From Pocillopora damicornis (Eukaryota), in NCBI RefSeq assembly GCF_003704095.1, contig NW_020846078.1, positions 248,001 to 312,000 on the forward strand: 64,000 nt of DNA, written 5' to 3'. Position 1 is the stretch's first letter, and each line of letters opens with the position of its first letter. The translations under genes and the position numbers were made by a program. The notes under the pieces are model-generated. The model was given only the letters and a program-made list of their open reading frames with translations, was not told where the DNA came from and made no database searches. Below, piece after piece: positions 29 to 31,436 of the stretch.

Positions 29-553
29 GTCTGTACTCAAGTAAAGTAGCCCATCTAATTGAAGCTTATTCCAGTTTTCACAGCATGAAGTGCAACTACA
101 GTATTGTGCAAAAGTTATGCAAATGCCTGTCAAGGAATTTCAATGAAATTGTTCCTTTTTGACAAATTTTGGACCAAAACAAAATTTGTGCCACATTTGG
201 CAAATTTTTGAGGCAGCTGTTGTTTGAATTCATCTGAAATTTTGCAGATCAATTCACTGGAAATGTTAATGAATCTTGAAATTTTTAGGGAAAGTTTCTT
301 CCAAGGAGTATTACACCCCCCTTCCCCTGGATTGGATGCTAGTCTATTGAAAGGTTACCCCCCAGCATTTGATCAGGCTTTCCTGAAAATTTACCAGTAC
401 CCATTTATACTCCTGGGTCAAGAGAGGCATTGTGAAAGTAACCTGTTTTGCCTAAGAACCTAACATAATGACCTGGCCAGGTTTTGAACCCAGACATCTT
501 GACATCTTGACATCCACCACACTTGCATGTGCGACTAGGCCACAGTGTCTCCA
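29..553 (-). mobile_element. tRNA-derived SINE-like element, interrupted by an unrelated ~200-bp segment (~100-302)
   Basis: The reverse complement of 400-553 reads as a tRNA-like head (gtggagacactgtggcctagt...gggttcaaaacctggccaggtcattatgttaggttcttaggcaaaacagg), followed by a CORE-like body. The tail resumes at 29-99. Recognised from recalled anthozoan SINE patterns. Confidence 0.6.
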
Positions 554-556
554 CTT

Positions 557-768
557 TTAACCCTTTGACCCTTAAGAGTGACCCGCATCTAATTTCTCCT
601 TACAATATCACCCCTGAATCACACATTAAGGTCATGAGAATAAAGAAGGTGATCACTAACCAAAGACTCTCTTGATTGTTAAACTCATTCTCCGTGTCAG
701 CGCCTTTGGAATTGTACAGAGAACAGTATGGAGAAAGTGCATACTGATGTAAGGGTGTAAAGGGTAAA
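557..768. mobile_element. piggyBac-like MITE (~210 bp)
   Basis: Starts TTAA-CCCTTTGACC and ends GTAAAGGG-TAAA. The internal sequence is shared with other copies in the window. Confidence 0.7.
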
Positions 769-1003
769 AACATTAGGGTATGCTCATGTGAATGTTATTC
801 TTTAGCATGCTATCAGTACCTCAAACTATTATTTCACTTACATTTCTACTAAATGGTATTTCAATTTTTAAGTCTTCAAAATATAAAAACTATTAAACAC
901 ATTATTTGAACATTAATATTTATGTATAATTACTTCATGAAAATTATTAGGTATTATTAAATATGTGACTATTAATCCTTTGCACTTTTATCGTCTTTTT
1001 CAG

Positions 1004-7735: not shown

Positions 7736-10700
7736 ATGTCGAACTCATCCAATCAGCCCGCGTATCAACGTTTTGATACAGCAGAGATTCTGGCAGAATT
7801 CCTGGGTAAGATACTACAGAGATGTTAGTCAGTCTTTTGATCCCAGAATAACGATTTTATTTTACACAATAAAACCGTTATTGCAGTTCAGAGGCTGAGA
7901 AAAGGACAATATAAAGGGGAACATGGGTGCTTTTATCTCTTTTAGCTAATCGTATTTCCGTACTTATTTCCAAGCCAACTCCATCCCTCTGACATTTTTT
8001 TTCCTTGCCAATTGTGCGATATACCTCATGTAGAGGATTATTTAGCCCTCTACAGAGATTCTGATGGTCGTCAAGCTGCATAATCGAGTTTATTCGCTAT
8101 GCCATGTGAGGCTGTAGCTTGAAATCTTCATTTCAAAACTGGGACTATTCCTTCGAGAAGATGAAAAACGACGGCTGAAGTAAATATGTTAATTACATCA
8201 TAATTTGTGTTTCAAGCCTTTAACCAACAAAACTGGACAGTGTTTCATTTAGCTGTTTCGTTTTGCTCTCTTGCATTCAGCATTGAACCAGGCACTTTTT
8301 CCTATGGAGTTCAGGTATAGGGCCCGAGTCTAGTTTCACGAAAGCGAGGCTAGTTAGGCCGTTGACCAATGAAAGCTCAAGGCTTTACTACACGTGACGT
8401 GATTGGCTGCTGCGACTGACGTGATAGCACTGTTTCTTCGAACTATGACAATACTAAAATATGATTAATTCAATGATGTCTTCCATAGTTTTTGTAGCGG
8501 TTCGAAAGTCGACAGTAAACATCTTAAAGCTTTCTATTCGTGACTTGTATTATTATTCGGTTTGACATTTACACCCAAATATCCGTCACTGGATTTCAAA
8601 CTCTGGATCATTAGTTTAGCTTTGGATTTAAAGGGTGTAGAACGGAAAACAATGAAAAACCTCTGCATGGCTTTAGGTCAGTGGAGGAAATTGGCTGAAA
8701 GGTGCCATTTTTTGCTCACCCTGCTTTCTTGTCCTTTCCGTTAATAGCCGGAGAGTCTGGTACAAAACGAAGGCTGGTTAAAGAAGAAGGCTGAAAATTA
8801 GTGTAAAGTCAATATTAATGCTCGATTCGAAGTGAGCTACCGATAAAGTCAACTATGAGACATAGATATGTAACCATATTTTTTGGAACAGATAGGAATA
8901 ATATATTATTTGTACGGATGTAAAAGTATGAGGGGAATTTATTCTTAACTATTGTTGATTATTTTTACCAACTGTCCATGATATCTTTTTTTTATTCTCA
9001 TTTTAGACTCTCCTTCGGATCATCATAACTTGGTTACTACGGACTCTAGCCCTGTTGTATCGCCCAACTTTCTATCACAGCTAGTAATGCATAATGAACC
9101 ACAATACCTCAACCCCCTTCAGCCTGGTTGCCCCTCACCGCCAGACAGCGAAAGAACAAACACACCTTCTCCCTTTGCAACTCACACCGTTCAAACACAC
9201 AATACCCTCCCAGATGGGAACTTCGTTTGCGAACCCCTTATTCCGAGTGCTGGACCGTCCGGTGCGGATTTACGAGCGCCTTGTCAGTACCAGACTTTCA
9301 GCCTTCCGCGTGATCGTGTAGGAGGAACCAATTTTGTCCGATACTCAGATAGAAGAGTTCAGGTGACCCATGCCCATTGCAATGAAGCGAATATCAAGAT
9401 CCTTAATCCGCGGGCAGAATACGACAAAGTGCAGAGAAAGCACGGACATAGAGGGAAATTTTCAGAGCAAAGAGTAGCAAAAGGAAAGGTAGGGCTGAAG
9501 CCTTTTCTCGCGACAGTGCAAACCTGAGATTTGTTTTTTGATCGATCAAAAACTACAATCTGATTGGGTATGCTACTCGCTATCTATTACGTGGTAGATA
9601 GTGGGTAAATTAAGTGAGTAGAATAACGGTGTGCGGTTATAGACAAAATTAAAATAAAACCACGGCCCTGTCTCCTTGTTAAGTTTTAAACAAACAGCAG
9701 ACTTGAATACTATAACAAGTACTTTTTTCTGGTGATTTCTATTTTTTTTTCAGGCTTCGTCCTCGTTAGCTATTTAGCAATAGAAATCTCGAGTTGATGA
9801 GTTAATTGTTTTGAAAATATGCAGTGGTAAAAATTGTTGCCAAGCACTGTTTCAATTTTTTTGATAACAAGCTTGACAATTCTGGCTCAATGTGGCTCTC
9901 AATAAGTTCTTTTTAGGGTTCATTTTTGGCTGATTTCAGGTTGAGATGGAAATAGACACACAGCTGCCTCTTCGTCAACTAGAAGTTTATGTGTTGCGTG
10001 ATTTTGAAGCTGAAAAGAAGCTCTACAGTAAAGACCCAAAAGCATACGGAGTAGGAGAGATACGATTTCCTGAGAAGGATGTCCAAGAAATGAATACTCT
10101 TGGTACGTACAGATCAGTAACTACCGCGCCAAATGCTTTGCAAATACAGGGGCGAAATTTATTGAGATCCTTGATTGCTTATTTCGGTCAAAAATCGACT
10201 GAGTTAGAGTACTCAATTCTCCATCGATGAATTATCCCAAAAGTTACTCTTTCCCTGATCTCTCGGGTGAAACTCGCACATTGCCTCTTGGATGAAGAAT
10301 GAACAAAAATCTCATGGGTAATCTGCAGTAGTAAATTTGTAGCATAGCATTGGATATTTTCAAGGAGATCCCTCAGGTATTTGGAAATATTGTTAATCAA
10401 AGTTATCTAAAATGACTGAATATGGTTTATCTTAAGAATGAGGAGTCTACGGGGGATTCAGGCGTAGTGCTGTACCTTGTTTTCTCGCATTCTGTATGGA
10501 TCCACTTTTGGTTCTACTTTTGCTTCCGATTGGTTGAGTGGGTTAAGCAAGGGTCCTTAACTGATCAATGATAGTTGAAAAGCAAAACCAATGCGATCTC
10601 GCATTATATGAAAATTACTGTACTGGTGGTGGTGAAAAGGCTTCAATATGTAAATCTTAAAACATTTTCTCTCAGGTCAAAACTCCAAGTACGTTTGCAA

Positions 10701-13700
10701 AATCGACCTTGACTCCGTGTACAAAACAGAGGATGGTAGGGAGATTTACCGACTGGAAAAGACGAGAGGCTTAGAATTCAACCGATTCTTTCTAAAAGTC
10801 TTCCTCGAGTTAAACAATGGACAGAAGTTGGTCCTTTTCCCTTATGAGTTTGTACTAAAGAGCAGCAAGACCGTGAAAGGTAAGCACATGGATCCCCTAA
10901 GATTTCTTACAGCACCATACGCAGCATTAGTGTAAGCATCAAATAATATCTATTTACCTCTTGGAAATGTAGGAGGTAAATGTTAATAGTGATGATAATC
11001 GTAAGATCGTGATGTTTCCTCAGTCAGTGATGCAGTCATACTTAGAATAATGAAATTCGCGATACTTCCAACTGAAGTCAAATTTGAGACCACCTGATTC
11101 CAAGTAATTCTTTTACTTTAGAGCGCTTTTCGATTAAGTGCCGTAAAATTAAGAGCAAAGAAATCACAGCAGCAAATCAGAGCAAATTAAGGAAGAAGTT
11201 ACCAGAGCCTTCGAGAACTAAACATGAAGAAAAAACAGCGCGGAAAACGCGAGTTGTTGAGACGCCGTTGGTTCTAGTTTTGCATTTGATTGGTTGAGAA
11301 AATGGCGCAAATTTTCTGGACCAATCACAAAGAGAAGTACAACAAAACGTATGCAATCCTGACTTTTTTTTGACACTCAATTGATTTAGCATTGGGTTGC
11401 GGGAAACTCCCGACAGCTTGGCGTGTAAACTTGGTTTTCGCCACAAACATTTCGCACGTATACCAACCATTCTGTCATGACTTGAATGTAGACGTGATGC
11501 TTTTATATCAGTGATGCAATTGAAGATGATGCCTTTTGTTAAGCTTACTGTTCAGATGAAAGTTTTGATAGTGTGGGTTCACTCAATCGAACTTCCAAGG
11601 TTCTTGAAGTGAAAATTACCTTTGGTAGTAACTGATGTTGAAAAAAAACATCATTTTGCAATAGTTATTTCTTTCTTTGTGTGATAAAAGTTAAATTTGA
11701 TGGTAAAAGTGGGGTATTCGAATATTAAAGTGATGCGAGGGAGTTTTAGAATTCCTGAAGAGTATCCCTTAAAAGTATCAGTGTTTATGTATGCATCCTA
11801 GGAAAAGATGTATATTACCAACGGGTGTTACCCAATGCGTTGAAAATTTTGGATTGCGGTAACAACTGTTTCGTTGCTCACTCTTGTGTTACTGTAGACA
11901 CCACAAATGATACCAAAACCCTCATTTAAGCCCTTTGAAGATACGCTGATCACCTCTCCCGCGTTTAAAGTAGTTTTAATTCAATTCTATTTCAAAAGTT
12001 CCGAGGGAACCTCAAAATGTCCTCTCACCTCAAACAGCTTGCTCTTTAACCTCTCCTCGTCAAGGTCCTCCAGGTAAGAATGACCTAATTGTTAACGATT
12101 TTACGTCTCTAGTTACCTATAAGCTTAAAACATTTGATCATTATATCGGGGATATCTCGACGTATGGATAGTGAGGAGACGAGTACGAAAATCTTGAGCG
12201 AGAGCCATTTTCCGATATGATCTTTTCGTTAGAGGTGATGGCTCGAGAAAGATCGTGGAGTTATGTTTGAACTTAGGAATACTATTTCGTTTTAGAAATT
12301 TTTCCTGTAGTCACTAGAGTACTGAGGAGCATTTCATCGCCTGATGTGAGTCCTAACGTTTAACTTGGTCATTCATCACAGCTTTTTGGCCAGGAGTGTG
12401 ATAACCTGAGCTTTAGAGCTGGGGCATACTGAAGTTTCTTATTGATCTTACTCTTAGCCTCCAGATGAACTAGTGTCTTGAGACGTATTCGGAGAAAGCG
12501 AGACACCAAAAGGCGATCGGAGTCAGTTTTGCATTTGATTGGTCTAATATGAAACATGCGGTTTCAAAAGAGTTACTTTCGACGCTCCTTTGAGACGAGT
12601 AGTTTTTCCAAAGCTTAAGCTGAAGAACTGACCTTTTCCACCGTTCATTGAATCAAAATTACTTTGTGATTTATTTTCACGATTCCTACAGATAGCCGGT
12701 ATGAAAGCTTTATATGCCAACAAATCGAAGCGGATATAGCTAAGATAAAAGACCTCGAAGTTGAACAGATAAAAACAGCGAACCACGACATCGCTTACTA
12801 CGTCAAACGGCAGAATGAAAGTCAATTTGAGGAAGGTGACGTGGTGGGATTCTTTGAAAGAAAAACAGGAGGCACTGTTATCGATTTCTTGACCAGTGAT
12901 AATGCTCATGAAGCCCGGCTGGCTGGTGTAATAAGTAGGTCAGCGTACCTAGTCGGGAACACAGGGCAATATGACGAAGAAGAAGATGGTAAGTAACGGT
13001 TGTTGCATGTCGTGCAAACATAATCGATAGTTCGAATTTATAAAAAGGATCGGGTAAGCATCAGTGATTGTTCTCTATATACTTAAAGTAACTACGAAAC
13101 CCAACATTTTAGCAACGAAAGTCGCTTTTATGGATGTACAAGACTATGAAGGCTTAAATTCCATGGCCTTTTCTAGTCGCCTGTTTTTGTTCTTGGGATC
13201 GTGCTATACGTATGTTTTAAAAGGGTTGTTTTACCTTGTCTTTTTATTTTTAATTTAAACCTAGATATTTGTGATATTTTTCTTTGGCCATGTGAACGTA
13301 AGGGTGGGGGGGAAGGGACGGTCTAAGATCCCCCTGGAACCCATTTGATTTCCCAAACCCCCCCTCCAGCCGATGAATAACAACCGGTCCCTAACTCTGT
13401 ATCTTTGTAACACTCAGATGCTGATCTTGTGTGCATCATCGGACAGATTAAAGTGAAAGTCATTGGCGAAGTGACACCTGGACAACTGGTTTACGCTTGC
13501 CCCAGTAATAAGTTCCCAGGGGTGGCAATTGCCACACCAGAACAAGGTAAAAACAAATTGATATAATTAACACAGAGATATAGTTGGGTTTGTCTGTACA
13601 GTTACAGGTTCTATCAGCTCAGTGCCACTTGAAAAACCAACAACATCGTATTTTATCTCTGTGTGAGGGTATAGACAATGGAGATTACCCCGCCACCTTT

Positions 13701-16700
13701 TGGAGAGCTATCTAGACAGTGAAGAGGAATTTGAATCCGAGAAAAAAATTTTGGAGAAGAATTTATATTAATTCCTTCACCACATTCATAGTTATGCCTG
13801 GTTCATACACCATCATAAATTACATTTTTGTATCACTTTTTCTTGATTCAAAGAAAACTGTGCAATTGGCTACCGCCTAGCTACAATTTTAATCGCACAA
13901 TTTATAATTCTGGAAGGTGCTCCGGCGAACTTTTTAACAAAAAGATTCCATATTGCTGCGAGTCTGTTGAGCAATAGATCAAAGATGGTGTCTAAATGTT
14001 GTAAGAACCAAAAGGTGGCACACAGGACACAGCTGGGTGTGTCACTGATGTTCTTTCCACATAATGACGTTTTCTGTGGTCTGTTACTGAACAAACCCAC
14101 GTTAATATCGAATCTCTTTGTTTTAAATACTAACGGAGCAAAAAGTAGTTTATGGTGACGTCATCTATGACGTTGTCCTCCAATAGATCATGGGTAAGAA
14201 CCAATCAAAATGCGTGAATGATTGACCTTATTATATAATTCGTATTACATAGGTCAAAGTCTTCACTGGTTTTTTTTTTATCTTCTTTGATACAATACCA
14301 ACCAAACTAAGGATGTAATTATGAAACGAACGTTAATTCGTTTAATTTGTCTCACGATGAAAGAGTCAGGCTAATCAATCGTGTATTGATCGTAATTGAT
14401 ACACGATTAAAGAGGTCAAGATTAACCAGCCTGACCTTACATCGTGAGACAAACTATTGAACGTTCATTGATCTTGAAATTACGATGAACGACAACCTTT
14501 TTTGATGTAACATCTCTTTGATTCCCTTTTTTTCATTTAGGAGACGATCGACGAACCTTGATCGGCTATGCTATGGGTGGATCGTCTGGTCCTGGGGTTT
14601 CCAAGGTGGACTGCATTGTGTCTTTAGTACTGAGCATCGGTGCGCAGGAGCAGTTACGAGCGTTGGATCAAATGAGACTAAGTATCGAGGAAGTGAGGGA
14701 AAACCTGTACACTAGTATAGATACGGTTGGTTTTAGAATTGCAAGAATGCAAAGAGGCTGGAGAGGTAAGAGGTGTAGAAGAGATAGAGTGAAATAAACG
14801 ATCCAGGGCTCCTTATGTCACCATTAAAATTATTTTTCAGAGACAACTACTTTGATAAGTTTAGGATGAATTCTAGAACGTCGCCAACGCCTGCACTTGT
14901 TTTCTTTAACGGTGTTCTTCGCTTTTTTTTTCTCTTTGATTGACGCCAATTGCAAATGACATACTTACGAAATTTGGGCTGAATTTTCAAGATGCACAAT
15001 TTCTCGTGTAGTTCATTCCTAAAACAGTCAACTAAGGGTGGTGTTATAAGATGACATGTAACAATGTCCTGTGACCTCTTTCTGGGGACACGCAAAAATG
15101 TTTGGGAATGCTGTTAAATTAGGTATCCAAGGGTATATTATAGTTAAACAGTGACGAAATTCCACTGAACACGACTTCAGCTGACGTGAAGTCTGAGATG
15201 TCTGGAACTTTTGATAACAGGACACCACTTGTTCAACATCGCAGTACAAACCTAATTATACTTAAAGATGATTGGATTCGATTTTTCCATGATAGCATCT
15301 CATGGTGAGGTCCCTTCTAGTCTCTGAAAAGACTCTCCTCTCTTGTTTTAAAACTACTGCCACTACAGATGACGTTTCTACCACATGGCAGGGAACTATC
15401 TTAGTATATAGATATTAACCCTTTAACTCTCAGAGGTGATTAACTTATAACTTCTCCCTATAATATCCATACATTATCCAGCGAACTGGTCGTGAGAATA
15501 CTCAGGCTTATCAGGTACGAGATATTATAATGATCCAACGCCGAATTCTTGTAACAAATTTACAACGAAATGTGTAGCAGCCAGAGGGGAGAATTGACAA
15601 TCCAATTTTGGGAGTTAAAGGGTTAACAAAATATCTGAATGAGTGCGAGAAAGAAGTAGTTGTACGCTTGGCACCATTCAGAGTTCGGACAATGACACCA
15701 ATGCATAATGTTGTATTTTTTCATTTTTTAGGGTTGTGGAAAAAACTGCTTGCAGTAACTGTATTCCTGGCAATCGCATCTGCCGTTTGTGCCCTGATGT
15801 TAGCTCCAAGTTCTCCATACGTCAAAGCCAAGTGCAGAGCTAATAGTATTAAAGGCCACTCGCTCACCTTTAAATTCTATCCTAAGGATTCGGACGTAAG
15901 AATTCTTTTTCTATTAGAGCGCTTTCCGATTTAGTGTCGCAGAATTAAAACGAAAGTGACCATAACAGCCAATCAGAGCGAAAGAAAATATTATAGGGAA
16001 CCAATCAGAATGAAAGTAAAAACAAGCTAAATGCCTAAAGCGCGGGGAAACGCGGTTTACTTCGCCGTGCGACTGGTCGTAAAAACTCGCATTTCCCTAT
16101 TAGCGCCTCTTATCAAATAAAATGATTACTCGTGTTTTCCCGCGTTGCAAGAAGTTTGCTCGTTTTTACTTTGAGATCTCAGTGGTTCCTTATGGCATTT
16201 TCCTTACACTGAATGTGTTTGGCCATTTTGGACCCTTTTTTGTGGCCTTTTCGAAGCTCAATCGAAATTCGCTCTGGAAAGAATTTATAATAATTGACTT
16301 AAATGAAAAATATTCCAAAATCACAAAGCTGGGTTGTCACGCGAGCTCGTTTGTCCTCGATTTTCGCAGGATCTTAAATCACGAAGCTAACAAACACAAT
16401 GATTTCAGTTGTTTCTCTAAATCTGACTTTTCTCTGTTTTGTTTCCAAGGACGAAGTTATTGTGAAAGGGTTGGAGTTTACATGGGAAAAGCTGAAAAAG
16501 AAATTAAGCCTGAGATTCGACAAAAAAAATGGAACAGGTAGGTATTTAAACATTTGATCTGCTCTTTTACTTTTCCCTCCGATTTACAGGATTGACCAGA
16601 ATGTTATTTCCTCTACCAATTTTAACACCCTGTTAAGCAAGCAGGTAAAGAGAATTATTAAACAGACCGTGCGGAAAGCTCCCTAATCCTGTGCTCAAGC

Positions 16701-17383
16701 CAACACTCGAATGTTGTGTTTATGTCTGGTTATTGAGCAAAAAGTTGGGTGAAACACGCTTAAACGTTGCAAAAAAATAAAAAATGGCTTAAGAGGAATA
16801 GATGAACGAAAAGGAAATTGGAGTTCCCTACTGAGCAATAATGGACCCTAACACTGTTTAGTTGTTGTTGTTTTNNNNNNNNNNNNNNNNNNNNNNNNNA
16901 TTGATGGCATTGCAACTGCTATTTCCATTATTATTTATAAATATTTTCAAAATGATCAACAAGAAACGAAAGATGAATTTTAACGAGGTTCTATTTAGTT
17001 CTGTTTGCTCCAAGCACTGACTTACGTTATCAAATTTGGTTGGAAATTCTGTTTCCAGTTCTGGTAAAAATTTTTCAAATGACCCCAAACACAACGTAAC
17101 CACATATAAGCTCTGTAATTTGTTGGATGTATTTCACGGGTTCTGGTAATAAACAGTAGGCTGTTGTAACTCTGCAGAGGAATACCGTTACTTTCTGAAC
17201 AAGATTCGCTGTGAAACCGGTGGAATTCGTTCTGTTGCATCATGGCTTGATCCGTCACCAGTGGAACCCAAGGTCAATGTGCTTGCCGTAGATCCTGCCT
17301 GTAAGGAGGTCTTCTACCACAGTCGGAAGGATGGGAAATGGCAACAGTACCAAGCTGTGGAAGACGTTCATTGTAATCATTAA
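7736..17383 (+). CDS. Uncharacterised ~700-aa single-pass membrane protein with a MYRF-like layout: putative DNA-binding beta-sandwich, Peptidase_G2-like chaperone domain, coiled coil, TM, luminal domain
   Basis: Eleven GT-AG exons join in one frame: 7736-7805, 9007-9488, 9940-10102, 10676-10879, 11999-12073, 12692-12988, 13418-13546, 14541-14765, 15732-15895, 16450-16537, 17178-17383 (2103 nt = 700 aa + TAA). Motifs: DIAYY...FEEGDVVGF...AGVISRSAYLVGN...VCIIGQIKVKVIGEVTPGQLVY...PGVA...IGYAM. TM segment LLAVTVFLAIASAVCALML. An acceptor at 7724 implies an upstream UTR exon (candidate donor at 5449/5450). The gene model is well supported; the function is inference. Confidence 0.85.
11120..11385. 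repeat. Interspersed repeat, CCAATC-rich family; partial relatives at ~10500-10620, 12490-12590, 15916-16273, 30850-31105, 38381-38508 and 41106-41233
   Basis: Recurrent motif tagagcgctttt...gaaaacgcgag...ttttgcatttgattggttgagaaaatggcgc...ggaccaatcac in several places. Confidence 0.7.
13932..14238. repeat. Interspersed repeat with internal inverted segments
   Basis: ttttaacaaaaagattc...gtctgttgagcaatagatca pairs imperfectly with tggtctgttactgaacaaac...gaatctctttgttttaaa; ends ccaatcaaaatgcgtgaat...ttattatataa. Confidence 0.5.
14328..14466. repeat. Nested inverted repeat (hairpin / fold-back MITE)
   Basis: Outer arm tttgtctcacgatgaaagagtcaggct pairs with agcctgaccttacatcgtgagacaaa; inner arm aatcgtgtatt pairs with gatacacgatt; gaacgtt/aacgttc at the ends. 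Confidence 0.75.
15415..15626. mobile_element. piggyBac-like MITE with intact TTAA flanks
   Basis: TTAA-CCCTTTAACTCTCA ... TGGGAGTTAAAGGG-TTAA: 14-bp TIR with one mismatch and TTAA on both sides. Confidence 0.85.
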
Positions 17384-22681: not shown

Positions 22682-22783
22682 AAAACCCGCTCAAAGCAGT
22701 ATGGGAGTTTCGTTTACAACGAGGAAGGGAACTGTCGTTATCTGGTTCCTAATTATAACATTCTTTCACGGACTACTAACAAG
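22682..22783 (+). other. Candidate exon encoding a signal-peptide-like sequence; linkage unresolved
   Basis: Acceptor tctccttag| and donor AAG|gtaaat. ATG at 22701 gives MGVSFTTRKGTVVIWFLIITFFHGLLT(R/S), ending in phase 2. Confidence 0.35.
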
Positions 22784-25700
22784 GTAAATAATGAGAAAAA
22801 TTCACACTGAGTATATATTTAATTATCTAGACAATATCCTTGAAAGTATTCAGATTCGCACTAAAGAAACTATCAATGTTTCGTTTACCCTTTTCCTTCT
22901 TGCGTAATATTTTCAACGCTCATTGTTCAGGAATACCGACTGCGATTCTCGACTATGTTTTTCTTGTCATACCCAAAACAGCGTGGGACGCCAAGCTGAC
23001 TAGAAAAATGCCCGAAGTTTACAAAACAATCTTTCTATTTATATGAAGTTTGAATGCGAAATAACCGCTCTGAAGGGAACGTACAAAACTGTCAAAGTGG
23101 AAAAAAACTCAACAGTCGCTCGTGTATTTTGTCACCTTTTTTTTAAAACCCATAATGAAAGTAATTTAGTTATGGTAACATAATGGCATAAACAATGTAC
23201 AGTAGAAATTGAAGTACCTCGAAACGACCGTACTTTCTCACTATAAACCACATCTAACTTTCTCCTCTGATATTCAACTCTATTGTTGTGTACTCAAATT
23301 GGAGATTTTTCATTAAAAAAATGGTTCACAGAAAGCTCGCACGTTTGAGATGTTGAAGGACATTAAAAATGGTTCATACACGTTTAGTTTAGGTGTTTTT
23401 ATTTTGCATTATAAAAATATGAATAGGGGCGTGTAAGCTACGAAACTGAGATCAATGGATCTCAATTGAACGACAAAACTTCCTCGGAAACACGGTTTTT
23501 TTCCGTCGGACACCCACTGTAAGAGAGTTAATTTTTTTGATGGGAATGTAAAGGGAGGTCTCGGCATACCATTATCAGTTTGATCGTAAGCGAAAATAGA
23601 TTAGGAAAATAAATCTAAATTAAAATACATTTTTGAAGCAACAGTGGCGAATATTTTGATAATTCTTGACGTATTTCTAAATATAGAACCAAAGAGGATT
23701 ATTAAAAATTTACTTCTTTCCGAATTAATTTACTGTTTATCATTGCAAGTGAAATTAATTGTTTTGTATTTTATAACGCAGAATTTGTTCCTGTCTTCCT
23801 TCCTCAATTACGCATATCACAGACAAAGAACTGACTTGCTATAAAAGTGTCATTCAGTTACCGTTTAACTTACACTCCATGTTATTTCATGCTAGCTACA
23901 CCAAAACTTTTGTATTTACATGAAGCTGAAAGACCATTTCTGTTGAATACCTAACTGACGTTTTTCCCACCTGAATGAATACTCTGGTGAAAAGGGAAAG
24001 AAATATTTTTCGGCTTGTTGTACTTGGTAGAGTTTCTCCCTATAAAACTATGGAGGATTTTGAAAGATAAAGTTCTAACGAGTCCAACAGATCACAACAC
24101 AAACTCAGTAAGTGACGATTCCCTTTTTTCACACTTATGAGTCTTACTCGTTCTTGATATCAATACGACGAAGTACATAACGAGCTTGAATTTAAAATAT
24201 GAGATAGCAATTTCATAAATAGGTGTAAGGTTGTTACGGTTTTTCGATGCACTTTTGTTTTGGTACCACTCCTATATTAAACATACAGTTTTATGTATTC
24301 TACCGAGACTAAAAGCAGAGCTTTCATTCTGTAGTTTTTGCACGAGAGTACAATAAAGCAATTTGCCTGAAAAAGGCTTTACAATTTTGAACGGACAGTC
24401 GTCTTGACGGACAGACCGACGGAAATCAGGTGAAAATCAAATTTCCAAGCCAGGATTGATTGTTCACATTCAATATTCTATATATTTTATTTTGTATTGA
24501 GTCCCCAGGCTGGAATTGTGTTCATACTAACCTTAAAATTTAAAACATGGCTACATGACAGAAACATTGGACAGGAAGTGAATTCAGAGTCCGTTATTTC
24601 CAAAACTGAATGACGTAAGAACCATTTTAATGTAAATAATTTACTCAAAAAAAGAGGTATCTCGCTGCTTGACACCAACAGTGATAACTTTAAGCCTACA
24701 ACACATGCAGGTATAAGGAGAGAACACGGTCATTCGCAGCCGGCGGCCCAGCACGTACTACTGATAAGCGCACGGTTTACGTGCGGTATTTTCCGCACAT
24801 CATCGTGTTTCTCTTAGTTAAGTTTTCAAAATTCATCTAAATTTTTCGGCAAAATGACGATGAAGTTTTTTTTTTTCTCGATATAAAATGGTAGCCAAAC
24901 TTTTAGTTGGATGTATTCTCTAAGGCTTCAGATTAGATAGCCGGCAGTAGCTCTTCCTTCTAGCATGATGTTTGATAATCCTTGGGCACGAACGTATGAT
25001 GAGTTCATGACGCCCCTAATATTTTCCGCCCTCTTGGTTTTGTTTTTTTTCATTTCTTTCATTTTATTTGTGAGAATTCTTTGGGAATGCTTCCGCTCTT
25101 ATTTTCCTCACTCCGCACCTTGGAAAGGAGGTTTGGGTCTAAAATTGGCTATTCTGAAGATATACTAATGGGAACGCAATTTTTTGCAAGTGTATTTTAT
25201 CGAAATTTCAATCCTAAAACAAGATCGTAAAACTGATGATATGGTCTTGACTACGTATTTTATACTTGACTGGATCGTTTCCAGTCTGTGCGGTTAAGGT
25301 ATTGTATTTGCATTAAGTAGAAGAATTGTACTACATCGATTCCCTCAATGCCGAGCCGGAGGCCATCATATGCAATAGTTAACTGAGTCAGCATTTTTTT
25401 ATACACTTTGTACAGATAAGTATTGAGAAGCGCATAAAGTTCTACAAATTTAGATTTTGCATGGAGCTGAATCAACGGAAGAATCTTTAAATCTTGGAAT
25501 GTGTTAATTCTCGTTTGCACCGCCCCTTCCCACACAGTTCAATTTTATCCATAGAACTTCTTTTTCTGATCGCCTTTAGAATCCAAAAAGAATTTATGAA
25601 GTAAAAAGGACTTTACCATTGGTCGTTACATTGTTCAGCGTTTCAAGTACTTTTGTCCTGATTGTAGAATTCGAAAAACAGCAACAACGTATTCGTGACG

Positions 25701-26053
25701 GCCTTAAGAGTAATCCTAAAAATGGACTGTTCAAGTATTGTTTGTTGTATTTTAAAGTGGTATTTGTAGGGACTCGGATTGGAAATTCAGCTAACCGCAG
25801 CGACCACTTTAACACGGAATGTGAATGAATTGCTATAAATGAGACATGGTGATATTTACATTTATGGTGTATCTTTTGTTTCGGTTAAACCCTGCAGGAC
25901 TTACTTGTTTTAAAAAAGCAACAACAAAAGCAGTAATAACTCAACTGCAAAAACATCAAAAACAAATTTTGTCACGCATCCAAAATGTAACTTAACAATA
26001 GTTTTTGAGGTCCCTAGAGGTGTTAATAAGGCAATGAGCTCCAATCCGCAATT

Positions 26054-29000
26054 ATGCGTTGGTGGCTAGCATTAGTGGTTAGCCTTGTAACTGTTTTTCA
26101 CCTGAAAGCTGAATCAGAGCCTGGGATACAAGATGAGTTGCGTAATATCAAGCAGTATTCTACACATACTTTATTGGGTATCAGCTGTGATCTATTTTTG
26201 AACAGATATACCGTCAGCATTGAAACTATTCGCTAAAAACTTGTGCCGGTGTTTTATAAATGAGTGGGCTGTCAGCTATTCTGCAAACAGATAACATCCC
26301 TACACACCCATCCCAAATAACCATTTATGACTTTATTGTCAGGAGTGTCCCAGGAGCTGGTTTTAAACGACTGCCCAGGAGTTTTAATAGTACTTTGACA
26401 AGAAGCAGCAAAAGAAAAGGTATACCGTATATTCAGCTAAAAAGGTAGCAAGATAGCTTAATCTAAACAGAGTTATATATTTTTTCCAGAATGAAAAGGG
26501 AATTTCAGTATTCTCCCTCATTTTTGTGTACGGGAACCACACCTGTCACCCGTGAGTTGTACCTTTTTTCGGTTGCACGGGAACCATACCTGTCACCCGT
26601 GAGTTGTACTCTTTTTTGCATGGGTACCATACCCGTCACTCATGAGTTGTACCCTCTTTTGCAAGGGTACCATACCTGTCACCCGTGAGTTGTACCTTTT
26701 TTCGCGTTTTGGTTTATTTCGCCTTGGNNNNNNNNNNAGTCGTCTTAAGTGAGGCCATTGAAAATTGTATGTCAGTTAACGGCTAATAGAGAGGGATGAT
26801 AGGAATTTACAGAGCCTTGTGGGCAAACCGACATCTTTGAGGATGTTTTAGTTGGACTGCATCCTTTTTCATCAGCTAATTACAGCTCGTAAAATGATTA
26901 TAACGACATCTTTTCATTCCTTTGAATAGCAGCCCAGTTTCCCGACGGATCGTACGCTAAAGTATCTCATATTATCGGCAAACGACTGAAACATTACGAT
27001 AAACATGTTCGCCCAAACGACACGGGTGAGACTTGTTGGAATATATATATATATTTTTGTTGATATATTTGACTTATTTTCTTAACGTTACGAGCGGTTC
27101 AGCAGTTATCATATTACATGCAATTTTAGTATTTCGTGCCTGCGCATTTGTCAGTTGTTTAAGGTCCACGAATTTTCAGATTCTTCAGTACTTTCGTTTC
27201 CTTTTGTCTAGAAACCTCAAAGCTTGCCACACAAGTGTCAGGGGTCGTTTCAAAATCCTTAAACCCGTTACATTCTATCGTCAGCATGTATATTCTCCAT
27301 ACGGTTTGTGTTGCTGTTGGTGCTGACAAGGGGGAATTTGTTGAAAAATCCGGCAAGAGCTGCTTTAGTTGGCGCGTGATCATCTCCTTAATTCTCGTGA
27401 CCTTAACGTGTGCTTCTGGAGTGATATTCGACGGATAAATTAGATGCTCGTCACTCGTAGGGGTCAAAGAGACACAACAAATTTAAACACAGTCATCATC
27501 GGACCATTTATTTTGTAGGACCTCCTGTTGAAGTTCTTATCGAGTTTAAACTAATGGCATTTGGAAAAATCAGAGAAGAAGATATGGTAAGTTGAAAGAA
27601 ATTTCACTGCGATTCAATTTCTCTAGTAATCAGTACCACGTGAGAGCGAAAGAGAACGAATCTAGAAAGAGCTTCAGTGCCATTAAGGCATCACAGCTTT
27701 TCATGAGTAAGTCTGCCAGAAACAGGACGAACTGGTATTTTGGTAACCCGTTATATGCTCGCTTGTATACAGAAAGGAAAGTTGGATCGGCATCCACCAT
27801 CCTCCTGCTCCAGTTATGAACAAATTAGTGGAAAAGTTTTGGGAAGATGAAAGTCAAAAAATATCCTTGTTTTGTTTATAGCTATGTAAGGTAGCATTTA
27901 TGGGCTTCATTCATAGCACAATTATTTAACAATTATGTCATCTTTCACTTTAATAAGGACTATACAATCGACATATTCTTCAGACAGTGGTGGAAAGATC
28001 CTCGATTGGCGCATGGACAAGATAAAGTTTTTAACGCCGCATTAGATCCTAGTAAACTGGGAAAAGGAATATGGACGCCCGACACGTATTTCCGAAACGT
28101 AAAAAATTCAAATTATCATTCAGTCAGTAGAGATAACATGCGACTGAGGATTTCTAAGGATGGAAGCATTTATTACAGTGCCAGGTAAATCAGTGATTCA
28201 ACGTAGAGTAACAAGGGCGTAGACCACATTTTCTTGTATTGGTGTCTTACATCAGCGCCCATCCGGCAATTAGAGGCATACCAGTTGTCATTTTACCATT
28301 GCACATCACTTTTCCCTAAAATATCTTTTTTCTCTAATACATTTGGGTTGAGGGGAGGGGGGTGGGGTAAGGTAAGATCTCCTTGTTGTCTGCCATACAA
28401 CTCTTAAGATGTTGGTTCGGAGAATTTGTGTTGTATCTACTAATAAATCCCCAAATTTATATTTATTGTTATTCTCATCAATCGTCTGCTTGATATTGTA
28501 TGGATATTGTGAGGAGAAATACCATCTTGGTCACTTATGGGAGTTAAAGGGTTAAGGTACTTTTGGAATTTCTGAACCCCTAAATGAAACTACCACAGAG
28601 CTACCAGCTGCTTATAGTAATAAGCCCACCCGCAGCCCACCCAAGAAAAAGGATGAAAGTTGATTCGTCACTTGCTCCTTCTATCAGGATAACTCTCACT
28701 GCTCTGTGTGATATGGATCTAAGGCTGTTCCCTCTGGACACTCAGAACTGTGATTTAGTAATAGAGAGCTGTAAGTATATAGACTTTAAAATACACGTTC
28801 TCATCGGCACAGCGTTCAGAAATTAGTAAACTTTTCAGTTTAACGCACTTTTAAATTGCGGTGAGGTGCGAGTGAAATGAACTACGTACTAAACAGTGCT
28901 AAACAGTAACAGTTCAAGAACAACACATACGGTACAAAAAAAATTTAACCTGATTAGATCTTCTTATGGTGAGAGCGACCTTCAGCCACTTTTTTGGAAT

Positions 29001-31436
29001 GTAAGCATAATAGCAGATTGCTTCGGGAAGAACTGTTCAAAAACTTATAATAATGAGGTATTTTCAAACAGACCACCGTACTGGTGACGCTCTGACGAAT
29101 AGCTAATGCTCGAAACGTCAGCTTTAGACACGCTTTGCACTGGCCAATTACTTTATCAACTTGGTCGATAAAACCAAATTATCGTGTTTTACTTGCCACC
29201 GGTGCAGCACCACAGTTTCTTTTGAAATCTATCCCCTTTAAGCCTTTATGGTTCATCGCCTTCTCCTCCTGCTGGTGATACTTGTTATCCTCTTCGGCCA
29301 GTTTTGTTCGTTAATGATAAGAATTTCAGTGATAGCTCCAACTTTGTTATTGCAGATGCATACACTGTGGACGATGTTATCTACAATTGGAACAATCGAG
29401 GCTCCAAGGCTATCGAGGTGTTCGCAGCTGAACTTGCTCAGTTTGATATGCTACAGATCGTTACATCCAAGAAAGCTAATACTAATAGCAAAGGTGAGGC
29501 TTTTAGAGGCTTGAAGCATTTCTGTGGAGGGGGAGCTAGAGAGAAGGGGAGTACGGTGAGGGAGACAAGGGGGACAAGGGGATAAGGGGACAAGGGGGAC
29601 AGGGGGACAGGGGGACAAGGGGACAAGGGGNNNNNNNNNNNNNNNNNNNNNNNNNNNNNNNNNNNNNNNNNNNNNNNNNNNNNNNNNNNNNNNNNNNNNN
29701 NNNNNNNNNNNNNNNNNNNNNNNNNNNNNNNNNNNNNNNNNNNNNNNNNNNNNNNNNNNNNNNNNNNNNNNNNNNNNNNNNNNNNNNNNNNNNNNNNNNN
29801 NNNNNNNNNNNNNNNNNNNNNNNNNNNNNNNNNNNNNNNNNNNNNNNNNNNNNNNNNNNNGGGGACCGGGGGACCGGAGGAGATAGGTAGAAATGGAGAA
29901 GATATGAAGGGGCCGGGTTTTTGTGTCGGTGGTTTCCCTGTCCGCCTAGCATAGAGAAACCTTTAAGCCTAACTTTCTACACTTTTTTATCCTCCGAAGG
30001 GTCCTTCGACAGTTTGAAGGCAACCTTCACACTCAAACGTCGAACAACGTACTTCATTTTTCAACATTTCATTCCTTCTGCGTTCCTCGTTTTCCTCTCG
30101 TGGCTTAGTTTCTGGATAGACAGACACGCTGTTCCTGCACGTGTCTCACTCGTGATCACGTGCATACTCAGCACCATGTTCTTATTCGGATCAGTTAACA
30201 ACAGTCTCCCTCGGATCTCGTACCTGAAGGCAGTAGATTACTATTTAATATCGTCGCTTACTTTTATCGTGTGCTGTATGGTGGAGTATGTGTGTGTCTT
30301 AAACTTCACGGATAAAGCAGCATCTTTCTTACTGAGGAGTCAAAGTCTGGCGCCGGTGAGTGTCATCAGTTGTTTAATCTTTGTTGAAATGTCAATATAC
30401 TTTCTCCTGTCCGCAAATGAACTTAACTTACCCGCAAATCCTATTGTGTCTGTGTTTAAAAATATACCAGCTATGTTGCTGGCTTAATGTCTGGAATTTG
30501 GGTGTGCAAATGATAGAAACTATTTCTTTTGAAGTCGGAATTCCTTCGACGAAATGTCTAGTAAATTATAACAGGTGAACGTTCCTTCACTGATCATCAG
30601 GCTCGTGTGGACGGAACAGTCGTTGAATTCATTCACACGGGGACATAGCTTTGGTCATCGCTTTGCGCTATTTTCAAATCTCATTCCAGAAGCTACTTTT
30701 ACACCTATCTTTGTCTGCATAATTTTAAACAATGCATAGCTTTAAAGCGATGGAGCGATGGAGCGATGTATTGCTGTGATTTATTGTTGCCATGCCTGTT
30801 GGTCGTAAAGTTTGTTTTGATCAACCAAACTAATCATAGTCCAGAGTAATCTTTAACTGAGTGTCGAACTGGTACTCCGGGATTGGTTTGGTTTTATTGT
30901 ATTTAGTTATGTGATTAGTACAGAAAACTCACGCCACTTTCTCAACCAATCCCATCTTGGTCACTCGTGTTTTCCCGCGCTTCAGGCAGTGACTTGTTTT
31001 TACTTCGTCTTCTCATTGGCTCCTGGTGACATTTTCCTTGCTGTGATTGGCTGTTGTGATTTCTTTGGTTTTAGTTTAACAATACTCAATTGCAAATCGC
31101 TCTAATGTTCAATTAATAATTTCTCTTCAGCCTCCAACACCAAATCCAACAAATTCTATCGCCGAGATGATGGACCAGCAAACGTTCAACTGTAACAAAG
31201 ACCGTCCTTTGAACGGAGTCGCAGGAGGCTTGTCTCTAAGAAAAGGTGTTTTTCTTCACGAAAATCTTTCTGCATCGAGGAAAAAGACTCCTTGCGCGAG
31301 CAATGCCTTTTTGGACGGTCTACCCACGAAACAGTTACCTCCTCATTACATTGACCAGTACGCGCGGAAAATCTTTCCACTTCTTTACGGACTGTTCAAC
31401 ATTGTGTACTGGTCTTACTATCTTCCACGACGATAA
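26054..31436 (+). CDS. Cys-loop ligand-gated ion channel subunit, GABA-A/glycine receptor-like (anion-selective type), ~453 aa
   Basis: Exons 26054-26141 (signal peptide, weak donor, least certain), 26930-27025, 27519-27586, 27958-28184, 28688-28770, 29356-29493, 30000-30355 and 31131-31436 join in frame (1362 nt). Motifs: YDKHVRP, FFRQWWKDPRL, IWTPDTYF, Cys-loop CDMDLRLFPLDTQNC, ESYAY, SWLSFWID, PAR before M2, LPRISYLKAVD, M4 IDQYARKIFPLLYGLFNIVYWSYY. Confidence 0.93.
26526..26702. repeat. Minisatellite, ~40-bp unit x4
   Basis: Unit tg(c/t)acgggaaccatacctgtcacccgtgagttgtacctttttt repeated four times next to an assembly gap. Confidence 0.9.
27259..27471. mobile_element. piggyBac-like MITE, reverse relative of 557-768
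   Basis: The reverse complement reads tttgacccctacgagtgacgagcatctaatttatccgtcgaatatcactccagaagcacacgttaaggtcacgagaattaagg, closely matching 563-650. Confidence 0.75.
28372..28555. mobile_element. piggyBac-like MITE, left end degraded
   Basis: Ends cacttatgggagttaaaggg-TTAA; interior matches 54209-54419. Confidence 0.7.
29085..29240 (+). mobile_element. Penelope-like element-derived remnant with a degenerate minimal hammerhead ribozyme motif
   Basis: gct-CTGACGA-atagctaatgctc-GAAA-cGTC-agc at 29089-29122, followed by tatcaac...gataaaaccaaattatc...gcagcaccacagtttct. Confidence 0.55.
29559..29880. repeat. G-rich minisatellite (GGGGACAA/GGGGACAG/GGGGACCG) spanning an assembly gap
   Basis: Tandem 8-9-bp units on both sides of the N run at 29631-29860. 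Confidence 0.9.

Follow-up and report, generated by a model that had tools for sequence, protein, structure and literature searches.

Tyrosine 367 of a 700-residue protein encoded by the coral Pocillopora damicornis occupies the position of the cutting glutamate of phage G2-type chaperones. The domain around it is probably, and we hold this with moderate confidence, a trimerisation scaffold that does not cleave itself, within a predicted membrane-anchored transcription regulator. G2 chaperones cleave just N-terminal of the Asp of a DxAE motif and use the Glu of that motif. The gene lies in a 64,000-nucleotide stretch of contig NW_020846078.1, called here the window, whose initial annotation had read the motif as DIAYY and had pointed to Tyr in place of the predicted catalytic Glu.

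This reading of the motif is correct. Positions 12775-12804 translate to TANHDIAYYV, with the codons GAC ATC GCT TAC TAC at 12787-12801 on the + strand. Codon 367 is TAC (12796-12798) in four of four sequencing runs, with the proviso that run contigs lose rare variants and that the source may be closely related to the material of the DNA runs. Exon 6 is spanned from end to end in two DNA and two RNA runs, and variant letters occur only at 12837 and 12924, which leaves the motif clean. The Tyr367 codon is genuine; a sequencing error or a private allele is refuted by run coverage, homologues and paralogues, and its probability is practically nil.

The exons were located with the help of the orthologue P0001, and the resulting 700-residue model is a 100% match to a named Pocillopora damicornis protein (P0184). 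All ten splice joints are backed by RNA contigs, each in two to four of four runs; one RNA-supported joint is displaced by 9 bases, the skip of 618 bases being unchanged. The model places the motif Asp at 364, APSSP at 573 and RYFL at 636 (Table 1). Two RNA runs carry a 12-base insertion right before the stop (17375-17376), which fits forms of 704 and 700 residues. In each of the four RNA runs, contig depth is very high over an intronic repeat at 15411-15628, and low-depth RNA contigs lie over introns elsewhere in the gene. On the same strand, a Cys-loop receptor gene (GABA/glycine-receptor-like, P0179) adjoins at 22701-31433, and exon-like stretches of another gene, ending upstream, are found at 1004-1980. 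A 1198-residue Pocillopora annotation (P0186) clusters with both the present gene and the receptor gene and is probably a fused gene model.

Table 1. Features of the coral gene and its product (window positions)
Feature	Position	Strand	Basis
Gene, 700 aa, 11 exons	7736..17383	+	Orthologue-guided exons with AG/GT borders; RNA-supported joints
Exons 1-6	7736-7805, 9007-9488, 9940-10102, 10676-10879, 11999-12073, 12692-12988	+	
Exons 7-11	13418-13546, 14541-14765, 15732-15895, 16450-16537, 17178-17383	+	
aa 1-142, N-terminus rich in Pro/Ser and predicted to be disordered (exons 1-2)	7736..9362	+	pLDDT <50 for 1-138
aa 143-303, Ig-like beta-sandwich, putative DNA binding (exons 2-4)	9363..10869	+	pLDDT 86-97
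aa 333-363, stalk predicted to intertwine in three chains, just N-terminal of D364	12694..12786	+	Trimer model
aa 364-501, G2-like (gpD/beta-clip) chaperone fold (exons 6-8)	12787..14623	+	VIA, hhalign
Asp364, equivalent of gp12 D692, first residue past the phage cut	12787..12789	+	Fold alignment, 3gqh start
Tyr367 (TAC), position of gp12 E695	12796..12798	+	Runs, family alignment, profile alignments
aa 502-548, helix, predicted three-chain coil toward the membrane	14624..14765	+	AlphaFold and trimer model
aa 554-572, lone hydrophobic helix (predicted membrane anchor)	15746..15802	+	Hydropathy 2.8, sole such window
aa 573-700, luminal domain predicted to be folded, Cys conserved	15803..17383	+	AlphaFold, family alignment
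APSSP and RYFL, both within the luminal domain	15803-15817 and 17186-17197	+	Gene model

The G2-like character of the domain, proposed in the initial annotation, is confirmed by fold and by profile. The AlphaFold model was made on P0001 (which agrees with the window protein at 670 of 700 residues; 113-row alignment); a domain-only model was poor (pLDDT 54) and left unused. Among 48,161 chains, the best VIA match is the gp12 structure 3gqh (Z 13.7, rmsd 2.5, 115 aligned residues; next match 10.2), with coral residues 364..501 paired with gp12 692..854, which sets D364 on D692. For 3suc, VIA gives Z 13.9 and rmsd 2.5 over 120 aligned residues (358..501 on 685..854). When 31 family domains were compared with 36 short phage domains by hhalign, the match reached 99.0% (E 4.7e-18, 141 columns) with DIAY opposite DLAE, and the D-to-G spacing is 16 in gp12 and in the coral protein alike. 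Both alignments thus put Y367 at the Glu695 position, as had been claimed, and neither places another acidic residue in the catalytic column.

The profile comparison is weak against gp12 alone (1%) and against seven long-form domains (6%), and the short-form phage domains appear to be the only profile bridge to the coral family. Sequence searches of Pfam, PHROGs and the PDB gave no significant G2 match (best PHROG E 0.0037). PF11962 did not exceed its cut-off in scans of 8, 15 and 15 proteins, and a weak exon-by-exon scan did not find it in the genome; Pfam matches to Phage_cement were weak and below cut-off (best E 9e-4). In the Atlas, viral clusters match at 0.93-0.94, and 17 of 30 matches fall in sets partly bearing PF11962 (19% in one row).

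In gp12, residue 692 is an Asp, and the mature part ends at residue 691 according to the accessible text of PMC6542822. The released fragment 3gqh begins at this Asp and starts DFAEY; the uncleaved 3suc ("pre-mature gp12") reads DFAQY, an E-to-Q change at the Y367 position. These sequences fit, indirectly, the cut before the Asp and the use of the Glu that the initial annotation had stated. Glu695 is the residue which we take to be catalytic, judging also from the sequence of 3suc. ATP-dependent release of G2-type chaperones is cited in the accessible parts of PMC13397572 and PMC13317679, and those of the neprosin preprint, PMC12220804 and PMC3357383 contain no word on G2 catalysis.

Glu stands in the motif column of all 43 phage domains (36/36 short-form, 7/7 long-form), a sample biased by the retrieval of one part with a pattern that includes the Glu. 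Since the neighbouring phage invariants D364, A/G366, G380, G410, S/T413 and G439 are retained in the eukaryotic family, the change from Glu to Tyr is specific. Pattern scans for Tyr-type relatives confirmed none of 127 stretches in viral contigs and yielded none from 151 stretches in prokaryote genomes and 617 in metagenomes, and tblastn of phage records returned none; all of these searches are insensitive and leave absence unproven. Short-form phage tail-fibre C-terminal domains with ADLAE (L025:29116-30318, L026-L055) are G2-like and mostly annotated as hypothetical.

Within the eukaryotic family the tyrosine is fixed. When a family profile was run against 1.84 billion representatives, 291 matched at E <=0.001, and the best 150 of these were used; 163 proteins were aligned, and the motif is covered in 126 rows, exon fragments and close orthologues included. 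In these rows, assembled after the search with a profile built from Tyr-bearing sequences (best 150 of 291 matches), the motif column reads Tyr 125 times, His once and Glu never, and the Asp364 position is Asp in all 125 rows having a residue there. Tyr is found in all 16 first homologues and in six of six family copies of this genome, with TAC and TAT codons both in use. The alignment of orthologues and paralogues, called for in the initial annotation, therefore leaves no room for a private Tyr among orthologues that all carry Glu.

Judged by sequence, the family is common to corals, anemones, hydras and jellyfish, with Tyr in nearly every relative examined. This coral has at least six copies, and members occur in anemones, hydrozoans and one jellyfish, all unannotated. 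The named ones come from Pocillopora, Stylophora, Montipora, Nematostella, Hydra, Hydractinia, Rhopilema and the choanoflagellate Salpingoeca infusionum; many rows are unnamed. The choanoflagellate and other non-cnidarian-looking members (P0148, P0030, P0113, P0130, P0193) keep D-x-A-Y and have no stalk match. Their flanking domains are different, and a hydrophobic helix is present in two of them, three of the five having no strong membrane helix. P0130 and P0193 start four residues before the Asp and were considered as a passenger-free form, an idea set aside as the cnidarian-type fragment P0134 starts likewise. In the Hydra member P0088 the N-terminal domain apparently occurs more than once and a long repeat precedes the G2-like domain. 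The five paralogues of this genome lie in two clusters, a convergent pair (G000:C2374:150000-170200) and three neighbours (G000:C1007:106800-133900), each with the Tyr motif and the same domain order. In a quick tree, one branch (SH-aLRT 98) separates the 33 eukaryotic domains from the rest. This agrees with a single swap, which we would place on the stem leading to the eukaryotic members. As the tree is quick and long branches meet in it, we claim no donor.

Stalk, chaperone, coil, single membrane helix and luminal domain follow one another in this order in all six paralogues of the genome. The trimerising role that the initial annotation had suggested holds as a prediction: three copies of aa 330-548 score 0.89 as a trimer against 0.42 for the best control. 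In the calibration, 21 of 30 solved pairs attained the score mark, as against 0 of 23 single chains (eukaryotes 17/29, animals 7/16); three copies lie outside this calibration. The runs share at least 96% of contacts, with pLDDT of at least 84, and the pass may stem from the likeness to the solved gp12. Contacts between chains of the stalk are predicted for 355-350, 354-350, 358-353 and 353-348. Y367 is predicted to contact residue 440 of the neighbouring chain, a residue variable within the family; residues 364, 379, 414 and 436 are not among the listed interface residues.

We propose that three chains would join through the G2-like domain, the stalk before it and the coil after it. Packing of Tyr367 against the next chain, as the model suggests, would explain the strict retention of this residue. 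Since residue 367 offers no carboxylate, glutamic chemistry would leave the bond 363-364 uncut, as in gp12 E695Q, and the N-terminal beta-sandwich domains would for this reason be tethered as a trimer. Release would fall to another protease, most plausibly acting in the disordered linker 304-335, or to partial degradation from the membrane side; alternatively, the N-terminal domains may act while anchored. In such a scaffold, fold, Asp and trimer would have been retained and the cutting carboxylate lost.

Some observations speak against a mere scaffold. D364 is invariant, polar residues peculiar to the family could make up a rewired site, self-cleavage is the simplest explanation of the MYRF-like layout with its stalk, and the family members examined show no other conserved release signal. 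It is therefore conceivable, and we regard it as a tentative possibility, that the protein cuts itself before Asp364 through a rewired chemistry of Asp364, Tyr367, Glu379, Arg414 and possibly Cys436, perhaps gated by a signal, and frees a trimeric N-terminal regulator as MYRF does. Besides the conservation of D364 and Y367 among the relatives listed (125/125 and 125/126), this alternative can draw on E379 (122/127) and R414 (124/129), which together with S415 (121/128) and C436 (60/64) are conserved in the family and absent from the phage set, where variable or small residues stand in their place. Y417 is also the family's own. The predicted stalk lies immediately N-terminal of D364, and no conserved RIP signal is found in the family. 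However, the E-to-Q exchange accompanies the uncleaved form of gp12, Y367 is predicted to lie in the subunit interface, and E379 belongs to a turn motif 15 residues downstream. In the Cys436 column phages have Ala or Gly, and hydrozoan members have Ala or Val. This suits a small buried residue and disfavours Cys436 as a nucleophile. The broader proposal of a second, independently built, cnidarian MYRF-type family, whose phage G2 chaperone would cut itself before Asp364 without the catalytic Glu (by Asp, Tyr, Glu379 and Arg414) and might be switched on by a signal, for instance a modification of Tyr367, we consider doubtful.

The function of the N-terminal beta-sandwich is a separate matter. 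DNA binding by aa 143-303 is suggested by structural leads, and the contrary view, in which this domain does not bind DNA and the protein, a permanently anchored trimer, serves as a membrane scaffold or receptor, seems to us unlikely. In VIA, aa 149-302 match generic Ig domains (Z 6.5-8.2), which favours the contrary view, as does the range of the Atlas leads COE, LAG1, SPT23 and p53 (0.75-0.85), transcription-factor fold scores below 0.9. Yet the named Atlas families are, with the exception of DG1062_N, DNA-binding Ig-folds (COE, LAG1, SPT23/MGA2, p53), and a basic loop holds conserved K-x-Q and Q-R. Basic clusters resembling nuclear signals by pattern occur in 16 of 20 members, this coral protein not among them. 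Foldseek relates the domain to p63/p73/NFAT at E about 4e-3. Pfam and PDB sequence searches gave no match for it, and comparison with the CSL exons of this genome gave none of significance (best exon E 1.1). The VIA matches listed do not include CSL, COE or Ndt80, which excludes nothing, and an Ndt80 domain is likewise not among the matches listed in the Pfam, PDB sequence and fold searches.

Release by two successive cuts, the first by S1P at RYFL and the second by S2P within the membrane helix, had been put forward in the initial annotation on the strength of RYFL and APSSP. It concerns the route only, is compatible with a non-cleaving scaffold, and appears quite improbable. RxxL is present in 17 of 30 full-length members, and an invariant Pro closely follows the helix; this first Pro is the only residue of APSSP that is invariant across the family. 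The remaining 13 of 30 have no RxxL, with H, S, N, W, F, Y or K for the Arg and M, I or K for the Leu. RYFL itself falls in a predicted strand (636-640, pLDDT 90) of a Cys-rich luminal fold with conserved Cys, and the hydrophobic stretch has no conserved helix breaker in the 17 members listed. The conserved, exposed luminal RxxL of S1P/S2P substrates of the SREBP and ATF6 type is thus not found. The hydrozoan-type members P0031, P0050, P0061, P0064 and P0087 carry Cys clusters where the membrane helix meets the cytosol, a possible lipidation site.

Cutting by an Asn362-His363-Asp364 unit, also raised in the initial annotation, is very improbable: N-H-D is found in this gene and its closest orthologues, but among the 126 rows listed N362 is kept in 57 and H363 in 18, column 363 usually being G or A (A 47, G 47, R 10), and N-H occurs in none of the five other paralogues of this genome.

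Among known systems, the Peptidase G2 / IMC domain (PF11962, IPR021865; phi29 gp12 D4 3gqh/3suc; Dpo31 D4) shares with the coral domain the fold (Z 13.7-13.9, rmsd 2.5), the Asp right after the scissile bond (125/125 rows listed), the predicted trimer and the place C-terminal to stalk and passenger. In contrast to it, the coral domain has Tyr for Glu695 and hence no catalytic Glu three residues past the Asp, does not contain the long insertion of gp12-type domains and has no Pfam G2 match; it is followed by coil, membrane helix and luminal domain, and is spread over three exons of an animal gene. Closest by profile, and of the same length class, are the short-form tail-fibre domains of Campylobacter phage CP220 (CPT_0036c), Agrobacterium phage Atu_ph07 and Pseudomonas phage Ettore, which are also top viral fold matches. 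These carry Glu, and their invariant Y+5, P and N are not retained in the eukaryotic family. The gpD-like phage decoration or cement proteins (7kmx, 8hdt, 8qsy), which are non-catalytic trimers, belong to the same fold class (Z 9-10.3) but score at least 3 Z units below gp12, and the coral family keeps the G2 D-x-A motif.

The layout itself recalls MYRF and Dictyostelium MrfA: the accessible text of PMC8326128 describes a disordered N-terminus, beta-sandwich, stalk, phage-type chaperone, coil, membrane helix and luminal domain, and for MYRF the chaperone is an S74 ICA domain built on a Ser-Lys dyad, with self-cleavage demonstrated. The coral chaperone, by contrast, has the gp12 D4 fold with D-I-A-Y, without catalytic Glu and without the Ser-Lys dyad of S74 ICA. 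The coral family lies outside Peptidase G2, as the catalytic Glu and a Pfam match above cut-off are both missing, and outside MYRF, as its chaperone is a different one. As part of the scaffold interpretation, we lean towards a MYRF-like layout assembled from other parts, the G2-like chaperone included. A literature search, with subscription journals largely outside its scope, turned up no animal protein described as having a G2-type phage chaperone and no account of the family itself, and six member gene ids gave no match; the accessible part of a survey of membrane-bound regulators (10.64898/2025.12.20.695554) does not mention the coral family.

If the domain does not cleave, the assembly and cutting tasks of a phage chaperone would be separable, with the first kept alone; if it does cleave, a new peptide-bond chemistry would be at work. 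Finally, the family is a candidate family of membrane-tethered regulators for early-branching animals.
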